Source of the DNA: Candidatus Bathyarchaeota archaeon
GTDB taxonomy: Archaea > Thermoproteota > Bathyarchaeia > Bathyarchaeales > Bathycorpusculaceae
Assembly (NCBI GenBank): GCA_963733095.1
Contig: CAVTBV010000003.1
Coordinates: forward strand, 32,001 to 96,000
Direction: 5' to 3'
Length of the DNA: 64,000 nt
Position 1 is the stretch's first letter. Each line of letters opens with the position of its first letter. The position numbers and the translations under genes are program-made. Below are positions 37,926-39,077 of the stretch, one piece after another. The notes under the pieces were generated by a model. It ran no database searches. It saw nothing but the letters and a program-made list of their open reading frames with translations, and was not told where the DNA came from.

Positions 37926-39077
37926 TTAGAGATATGAGTGAAACCCAGCAAAAATAAAACTGCTCAACCCCGTTATGACTACTAATCCGCAAGTGAGCAG
38001 GGATAGCAATTTTGTTGTCGTATACTTCTTTTGGACATAGAAAAGTTGCGATGCAGAAGCAGAAAGGAACAGTGCCAGCGTCATTGTTTCTTTGGGGTCC
38101 CAGGACCAATAGCTTCCCCAAGCAAACTGCGCCCACAACATGCCCGTCAATAATCCAAGAAAGGTGAACAGCCAAAGCATCCTTCCCGTTATCTTTGTTA
38201 TTCTGCTTTCCAAGTCGTTTATCTTTAGAACAAGGATTGCAAACAGGAATGTTAGTACATAGCCGGTAATTGCGAGTGGTGGATGGATGTAGAGCATTTG
38301 GGAGTTAAATGAATGTGAAGATGTTGTTGGGTTTGGCTGGGTTGTTGGTGTTGTTGATGGGGTTGAGTTTGAGGTGGGAATGCGCGTTGGGGTAGCTGCA
38401 GTATTGGTGGGTTGATTTGTTTGCGCATGTGTAGGTATGGGCGTGTTTGTGACGGGTGGATTGGTTGAGGTTTGTGGGGTTGTGGATGATAGGGGTGTTA
38501 ATGTTGGAATGGGTGTTGGTGCTGGAGTTGGGGTAAGTGTCAGGTTGGGATTGAAAGCAACGGTTATCAAAGGATTGGGTAAGTAACTATCTGAGTAGAA
38601 AAGATGCTCATGGATAGTTATGGCCGAAGCCGAAATCACGAGCTCATCTGGACCTTGTGAAATTCCAGTTATTTGCCATGTTGCAGTGGCAGTAGTTGGA
38701 CCAAGGGTACCGATGTTGAATGTGGGGTTGCTGACTGAGAAATGGCCGTTCTGAGAACTTAGGGTGACAGTAACGCTTAAAAACTGATTGAATAGTGGAG
38801 GCGCGTTGTTAATGTTTTGTATAGCTACGGTAACTGTTGTGGTTTGTCCAACCACTATGGTTGAGGGAATAATGTTTTGACTATTGCCCTCTAAGATGTC
38901 TAACTGTTGATTGTATGTTGAACCGTGGCAGGAACTACACTGGTTTGAAGACAGTGAAAAGACGAGTGATGCCAACAAAGCAACAGCAATAGAGATGGTT
39001 GCAAACAAAACTGTAAAAGTCATCCAGTGCAACTTTACAGTTGGTCGGGAAAACATTTTTTTCTTAGACAAACTCAA
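37926..39077 (-). CDS. Fusion protein: signal anchor, CxxCH, Ig-like domain, Pro/Thr linker, CcsA-type WWD heme-handling domain
   Basis: CSSCH at 38925-38939; [20 protein letters not shown]; terminal GFHSY. Confidence 0.85.

Follow-up and report, generated by a model that had tools for sequence, protein, structure and literature searches.

A bathyarchaeal gene joining a CxxCH-bearing Ig-like domain to a minimal WWD core, a candidate one-gene cytochrome c maturation unit

A single open reading frame of an uncultured Candidatus Bathyarchaeota archaeon (minus strand, 37926–39077) joins a CxxCH-bearing Ig-like domain, through a Pro/Thr-rich linker, to a minimal WWD membrane core. Our comparisons support the view that the two halves work as a pair: the C-terminal module probably acts as a minimal cytochrome c synthase dedicated to one substrate, the N-terminal CxxCH-Ig domain. 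Coordinates refer to the window, the whole stretch of 64,000 nucleotides analysed here (positions 32,001–96,000 of the forward strand of contig CAVTBV010000003.1, assembly GCA_963733095.1). An initial annotation of the window had described one frame carrying all of these motifs and suggested a self-maturing cytochrome c; the frame and its motifs are real, and an AlphaFold model places a beta-sandwich at residues 57–174 and four helices at 266–382.

Layout of the fused gene and its CxxCH-Ig domain

The frame comprises 383 codons counted from a TTG, and its probable start is the ATG at 39056, favoured over the TTG because it fits homologue lengths better; the recorded gene call of the protein begins at Met19. 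All features of the gene lie on the minus strand. Hydropathy marks an N-terminal basic and hydrophobic segment (38955–39056), and the x-P-A-F-S pattern that precedes the motif in homologues suggests that it is probably a cleavable Sec signal peptide, which the segment resembles more than the signal anchor of the initial annotation. The putative heme c attachment motif CSSCH (C47, C50 and H51; residues 47–51, 38925–38939) is followed by the Ig-like beta-sandwich (38553–38912), which is of CARDB/alpha-2-macroglobulin-type fold and has no Pfam family. Within it lies H156 (38610–38612), the first His of IHEH (155–158) and a candidate second iron ligand; earlier, IHEH as a whole had been proposed as the distal ligand, and among the matches listed this His is invariant in 57/57 rows of fused proteins, whereas the second is not. 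A flexible Pro/Thr/Ser-rich linker of 81 residues (176–256, 38310–38552), of which Pro and Thr make up 56% and whose length differs among homologues, leads to the 127-residue four-helix WWD/P-His core (PF01578; 37929–38309). By alignment, the core presents H265 in IHPP (YIHPP at 263; 38283–38285) as the equivalent of P-His1, and, by alignment to 7s9y, a WWD loop from W315 to E330 (38088–38135) with the WWD motif [11 protein letters not shown] at residue 320; its four helices carry [16 protein letters not shown] and a terminal GFHSYL. The last membrane helix contains a conserved Cys, C363 (37989–37991), and ends in GFHSY, where H380 (37938–37940) is the equivalent of P-His2 and aligns with CcsBA H897.

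An assembly or frame artefact was considered and rejected, as at least 56 other full-length homologues exist and contigs span the linker, which is bridged without difference by contigs of two studies (one run perhaps being the source sample). A promoter and terminator scan of the gene gave only chance-level results. A phage tail sheath gene (PF04984, PF17482; 36796–37875, plus strand) converges on the fused gene, and no other obvious phage gene was seen among the frames of 30000–47000.

The Ig-like domain is modelled with a pLDDT of 96.5, and its structural matches are generic Ig folds (best Z 10.7, rmsd 4.0, 108 aligned); no c-type cytochrome fold appeared among the top 50, which weakens the synthase reading, and a possible likeness to cytochrome f or Reeler found no entry there either. 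Residues 43–93 weakly match the choice-of-anchor V family (NF041895), a Reeler-like CxxCH domain (E 0.011, 15.8 against 42 bits), as a lead only, and an Atlas lead at 0.81 likewise points to Reeler-like CxxCH domains, with Reeler on 27% of members. In alignment A4, conservation of the CSSCH motif reaches at least 90%; a relaxed CxxCH fits 155 of the 168 sequences that cover the motif, 13 falling outside it, and distant members show CxCH, CxxDH or single-Cys variants. A scan of 65 out of 141 representatives also showed fusions of the domain with ferric-reductase membrane domains (3) and with a ferredoxin behind a membrane helix (5), company that argues for the synthase reading. In P0134, P0149, P0152, P0156, P0160; P0200, P0211, P0234; and L127, L132, L161, the CxxCH-Ig domain caps a long Ig stalk whose far end is either a membrane helix plus ferredoxin or a cytochrome b-like membrane domain.

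The core among WWD-family proteins

PF01578 matches residues 242–373 (E 8e-22; 78.4 bits against a cut-off of 29.9), and the core helices lie at 266–284, 292–320, 328–348 and 352–382, with basic residues on both short inner loops. In the passages of PMC10663686 considered here, four core helices, a WWD loop and two outer His are common to CcsBA, CcmC and CcmF, and the core of the fused protein consists of those three shared features and nothing more. Its W315, W320, K329 and E330 align with W828, W833, K842 and E843 of Helicobacter hepaticus CcsBA (7s9y), on which activity depends according to an excerpt of PMC6299221. Short proteins past E 1e-10 number 579, and the best 120 of these are all stand-alone cores, which are commoner than fusions and keep H265, W315, W320, E330 and H380 in 120/120. 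The presence and near-invariance of residues essential in CcsBA argue for a synthase.

Among solved structures, CcmC, CcmF and CcsBA are closest in sequence, and the protein scores far under the cut-offs of the CcsA, CcmC and NrfE models. As the initial annotation had noticed, no His follows the WWD motif at the CcsA membrane-His position (TM-His1), a column that is hydrophobic in P0001 and in the best 120 of the 579 stand-alone cores and His in 26 CcsA rows. A tree of 132 columns, in which the cores were compared with 26 CcsA, 14 CcmF and 9 CcmC rows from loci of this analysis, groups the 20 core rows as a clade of their own (SH-aLRT 96), with sister-group support of 43, too low to trace the core to CcsA, CcmF or CcmC. 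The core is a WWD-family protein, not a CcsA by membership: the label "CcsA-type heme lyase" captured the WWD core and was too narrow in its first part, since the protein forms its own clade and fails two CcsA features, and the HPP of IHPP is like that of CcmF rather than that of CcsA. C363 is found in 119 of the 120 best-listed stand-alone cores and is absent from L222 and from the CcsA, CcmC and CcmF rows; it could possibly serve as a thiol relay or transient heme ligand.

With CcsA/ResC of System II (CcsBA; 7s9y, 25vk; TIGR03144), the core shares the [12 protein letters not shown] loop, the terminal G-x-H-S P-His2 and the four-helix core, but it lacks the membrane His, CcsB and beta cap, has about half the length, scores 52.9 bits against a cut-off of 187.6 (TIGR03144) and is fused to, or co-encoded with, one substrate. 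Both membrane His of CcsBA are needed for function in the parts of PMC6299221 and PMC10663686 that treat them, which, together with the missing CcsB beta cap, weakens the synthase reading; CcmCD, however, moves heme without membrane His ligands (an excerpt of PMC13141917), so their absence here is compatible with export. With CcmF/NrfE of System I (6zmq), the core has in common the IHPP-type context of P-His1 and the helix spacing (Z 12.1, rmsd 3.1, 118 aligned, values that helical bundles reach by chance), whereas it spans 127 rather than ~640 residues, has no accessory heme His, falls in a separate clade, scores 29 bits against 569 and was found with no CcmE, CcmC or CcmH. CcmC of System I (7f02) likewise has the WWD core, two outer His and no membrane His; the linked acceptor here is instead a CxxCH protein, WDPKE stands in place of WDxRE, the clade is separate, the score is 45.6 bits against 186, and no CcmE match was obtained in the genome or genus.

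Two further systems offer functional parallels. Wolinella NrfI (CxxCK) and CcsA1 (CX15CH) are one-substrate synthases compatible with odd motifs, though full-size, CcsBA-type and unfused to their substrates in the section of PMC12285233 that describes them. Methanosarcina acetivorans CcmABCEF shows archaeal maturation without CcmD, CcmH and CcmI and still takes five or six genes, including CcmE (passages of PMC9084895). Outside the genus, Atlas leads (scores 0.84–0.89) comprise PF01578 clusters of 112–145 residues with Thermodesulfobacteriota or Thermoplasmatota members, possibly small WWD cores elsewhere or else fragments. A metagenome scan, crowded by bacterial CcsA, returned just three close loci.

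Linkage, splitting and co-loss of the two halves

The source genome (2.84 Mb, 95% complete) encodes the fused protein as its sole PF01578 match and only WWD protein, and profile searches, which can miss divergent proteins, gave no genome-wide match to CcmE, ResB/CcsB (PF05140) or DsbD/CcdA, extending to the genome the earlier remark that no ccsB, ccm or ccdA lies nearby. Among 32 frames with CX2-4CH, most CxxCH matches being cytoplasmic metal-site proteins, a canonical CxxCH behind a signal-like N-terminus occurs only in the fused gene; one other frame, of 100 codons with CX4CH, passed the hydrophobicity filter. That the sole WWD protein and the sole exported CxxCH coincide, with partners unmatched, argues for the synthase reading. 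The genome also encodes KatG; no heme-copper oxidase (COX1) was found, and searches with five membrane-domain queries and CcoN/CcoOP gave no membrane cytochrome b or cbb3 partner. No redox partner was found in the genome, which counts against the synthase reading.

A survey of 120 genomes of the genus, which are related and not independent so that no statistic was put on the counts, placed the minimal core in 20 and the CxxCH-Ig domain in 22; every core genome also has the domain, and the remaining two domain-bearing genomes encode a CcmF, such that a WWD protein accompanies the domain in 22/22 genomes against 32/120 overall. Thirteen of the 20 carriers have no other full-size WWD protein. The intact fusion occurs in eight carriers and a split operon in ten; of the last two, one has multiple copies and the other a broken one. 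In the split operon, a CxxCH-Ig-linker gene, whose product in most cases has its own C-terminal membrane anchor, is followed directly by a core of 131–136 residues. Across the loci read, no additional gene is found repeatedly next to the unit. One split form (G410) lies next to the fasciclin and HIT genes also found in the window, and at L222 a CX4CH-Ig and membrane-domain gene precedes a 130-residue core by 6 bases. The database labels of these proteins read CcsA, ABC permease or hypothetical. The frequent splitting of the unit in relatives shows that it can do without its tether, and makes ligation in cis no more than a possibility; separate genes in relatives had been named beforehand as a refutation of the proposal, yet their adjacency leaves the functional link unbroken. 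The proposal of a minimal one-gene maturation system is accordingly supported as to the pairing of the halves and the lack of another system, and weakened as to ligation in cis via the tether.

Some carriers combine odd motifs (CSSCPH, CSCGFH, CX4CH) with an intact core, and one (G389) has WG in place of WD with its CxxCH intact. The odd motifs fit a dedicated synthase, because dedicated lyases for odd motifs are known; along with the WG variant, and with the fusions lacking P-His2 described below, they also weaken the reading.

In a draw of 301 genomes from the class, the CxxCH-Ig domain occurs in 10, of which three have the split operon and two (G198, G259) encode 730-residue fusions, in which stalk repeats accompany a WWD core and a membrane domain that carries His; these fusions keep CxxCH and WWD and lack P-His2. 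In two more (G207, G285), the core has decayed, CxxCH is retained and ccmF directly adjoins, which argues for the synthase reading. One genome that encodes CcmC, CcmE and CcmF carries the domain joined to a His-rich membrane domain, and one of the 10 matches is truncated. G198 further has a stand-alone core (L126:463–831) with no CxxCH gene beside it on a 2.3 kb locus; this core may act in trans, since the same genome has a 737-residue fusion without P-His2.

Homologues of the fused protein were taken from the best 120 of 367 matches, where, apart from the protein of the window itself, at least 56 have the complete layout, the named ones among the matches listed being labelled Bathyarchaeota. 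The alignment of the 57 fused proteins included the N-terminus in 49, and the eight without it were left out of the comparison. As the proposed covariation of CxxCH with the WWD and His residues had predicted, 33 of the 49 have the second Cys together with W320 and the G-x-H tail, 16 are without any of the three and none is mixed. The 16 (P0006, P0009–P0011, P0015, P0017, P0019–P0021, P0023–P0027, P0051, P0055) have CxxFH, CxxYH or CxxVH and L, S or T in place of W; one (P0025) is cut short at its C-terminus, and in two the altered tail still contains a His. With motif and tail left out of the tree, the 21 rows without W320 form two lineages, of 19 and 2 rows, and a single origin of the loss was rejected (p-AU 0.0008). 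The triple co-loss is hence two events, not sixteen, and one of them rests on two sequences. Both the co-loss in two lineages and the core–domain linkage in 20/20 genomes argue for a synthase acting on the attached domain, an argument tempered by there being only two events and by the conservation of the degenerate clade. That clade is 78–79% identical in its domains and 57% in its linker and retains C47, H51, H156 and H265, so the protein does something without its full active site; degenerate versions may bind heme via one Cys or non-covalently. Two degenerate copies seen as DNA (G378, G400) are broken or stop-interrupted.

Heme supply, proposed mechanism and alternatives

The source genome contains hemA, L, B, C and D genes, read from translations with HemB confirmed by Pfam, and an ahbABCD cluster (G000:C6:100209–104222, L117) that includes an Lrp-type regulator gene, in which AhbA and AhbB exceed the cut-offs and AhbC and AhbD are best matches below theirs; on these matches, it is read as encoding the whole Ahb route. 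A link between the core and the cell's own heme synthesis was sought and not found: AhbB was detected in 7/20 carriers against 36/100 other genomes of the genus and was not seen in 13/20 carriers, a further point against the synthase reading. In five tested carriers, 93–99% complete, neither AhbA nor ferrochelatase exceeded the cut-off, and three of these encode the heme enzyme KatG. Such carriers without heme synthesis genes, some with KatG, make outside heme or an alternative route likely in many carriers, and a portion of PMC8351635 infers heme auxotrophy in other archaea. Heme ABC binding proteins (PF01497) occur in 2/5 genomes and are uninformative in this respect. Across the 120 genomes, KatG was seen in 62, heme-copper oxidase subunit I in 46 and AhbB in 43, and several genomes with KatG or heme-copper oxidase show no Ahb gene.

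The genus offers a parallel. A full CcmF lies beside a heme-copper oxidase subunit I gene in 16/16 genus genomes having CcmF, and in all three loci read (L300:5423–11015, G001; L301:2360–8329, G022; L302:2613–8309, G388) it neighbours a cbb3 operon with CcoN and a fused CcoO-P bearing three CxxCH. CcmE was found in 0/120 genus genomes, PF03100 serving as a positive control that detects it in three other genomes of the class, and the post-WWD His is replaced in the genus CcmF rows read. These observations suggest a CcmE-independent CcmF in the genus and lend the synthase reading support.

From the sequence features, conservation, co-loss, gene linkage and missing partners described above, we infer heme binding, covalent attachment, a heme route and a function as follows. 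The protein would be exported by Sec, with the Ig domain hanging outside on its linker, and heme would sit between H265 and H380 at the outer face of the four helices, its vinyl groups oriented by the WWD loop. C47 and C50 would then add to the vinyls, H51 would displace H380, and H156 would probably become the second ligand, within one chain or between neighbouring chains. Heme would arrive without CcsB, CcmE or membrane His, either via the four-helix core or from membrane or medium, and the product would be a monoheme c protein tethered at the surface, serving most probably as a redox carrier. Purified CcsBA needs reductant alone in vitro in the part of PMC8112865 concerned.

The foremost alternative is that heme is captured or delivered and no double ligation is catalysed: a CcmC-like core would present heme taken from medium or membrane, and the Ig domain, as a store or receptor, would bind this heme non-covalently or via one Cys. 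We consider it unlikely, although it has points in its favour: the core, like CcmC, has neither membrane His nor a large outer domain, the nearest Atlas models include CcmC-type clusters, and the degenerate clade keeps C47, H51 and H156. The surface heme capture raised in the initial annotation gains some ground from the same source as the outside-heme proposal, namely that most carriers show no heme synthesis genes (including the 13 without AhbB and the five without AhbA or ferrochelatase, three of them with KatG), yet the source genome itself is read as having the whole Ahb route. Thioether chemistry better fits a second Cys that is lost only with W320 and H380, a ccmF lyase gene lies next door where the core decays, and a covalently fixed heme would be a poor uptake intermediate.

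Less probable still is that the core is a synthase subunit in need of a divergent, unrecognised partner (CcsB-, CcmE- or reductant-like), in which case the unit would not suffice alone. All WWD synthases studied so far work with partners, according to the sections of PMC10663686 and PMC9084895 that cover them, and divergent proteins could escape profile searches of a 95% complete genome. Against this stand the lack of a recurrent third gene beside the unit, a CcmE profile that succeeds in the class and returns nothing in the genus, and the dispensability of CcdA/CcmG in M. acetivorans under reducing conditions (an excerpt of PMC9084895). That CxxCH binds zinc or forms a disulfide in an ordinary surface Ig domain, its fusion to WWD being incidental, is very improbable: cytoplasmic metal-site proteins dominate the CxxCH matches of the genome, divergent motif variants exist and the fold is a generic Ig sandwich, but the perfect co-loss with WWD residues in two lineages, the 20/20 linkage with a WWD protein in every domain-bearing genome, and the adjacent ccmF that replaces a decayed core all speak against it.

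Beyond the pairing of synthase and substrate, a broader reading, which we put forward tentatively and at somewhat less than even likelihood, is that a WWD core of ~130 residues alone would be a complete synthase supplied with heme from membrane or medium without CcsB, CcmE or membrane His; that the fused gene would by itself encode a cytochrome c that matures its own product, an Ig-fold monoheme domain of a kind not yet described; and that CcmE-independent maturation, by mini core or orphan CcmF, would be the rule in the genus. There is a real chance that this gene is the simplest system of cytochrome c maturation. Among archaea, the smallest system described so far, in the passages of PMC9084895 at hand, is CcmABCEF. 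Full-text searches of the open literature gave no description of the fusion, an architecture that the initial annotation did not recognise from any description, or of a stand-alone minimal core.

WWD cores have so far been studied only inside large machines, where the added role of CcsB, CcmE and the membrane His is at issue; a core with its attached substrate and natural loss-of-motif variants makes such questions testable with one gene. If the synthase reading is true, the view that archaea use only System I, as conveyed by the portions of PMC4429474 (in which Kletzin et al. found no System II–V proteins in archaea) and PMC9084895, would change, and a family of Ig-fold c-type cytochromes would be added. 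Surface redox activity or heme scavenging would then be indicated in abundant sediment archaea, and the 130-residue synthase could serve as a compact tool for heme c proteins.
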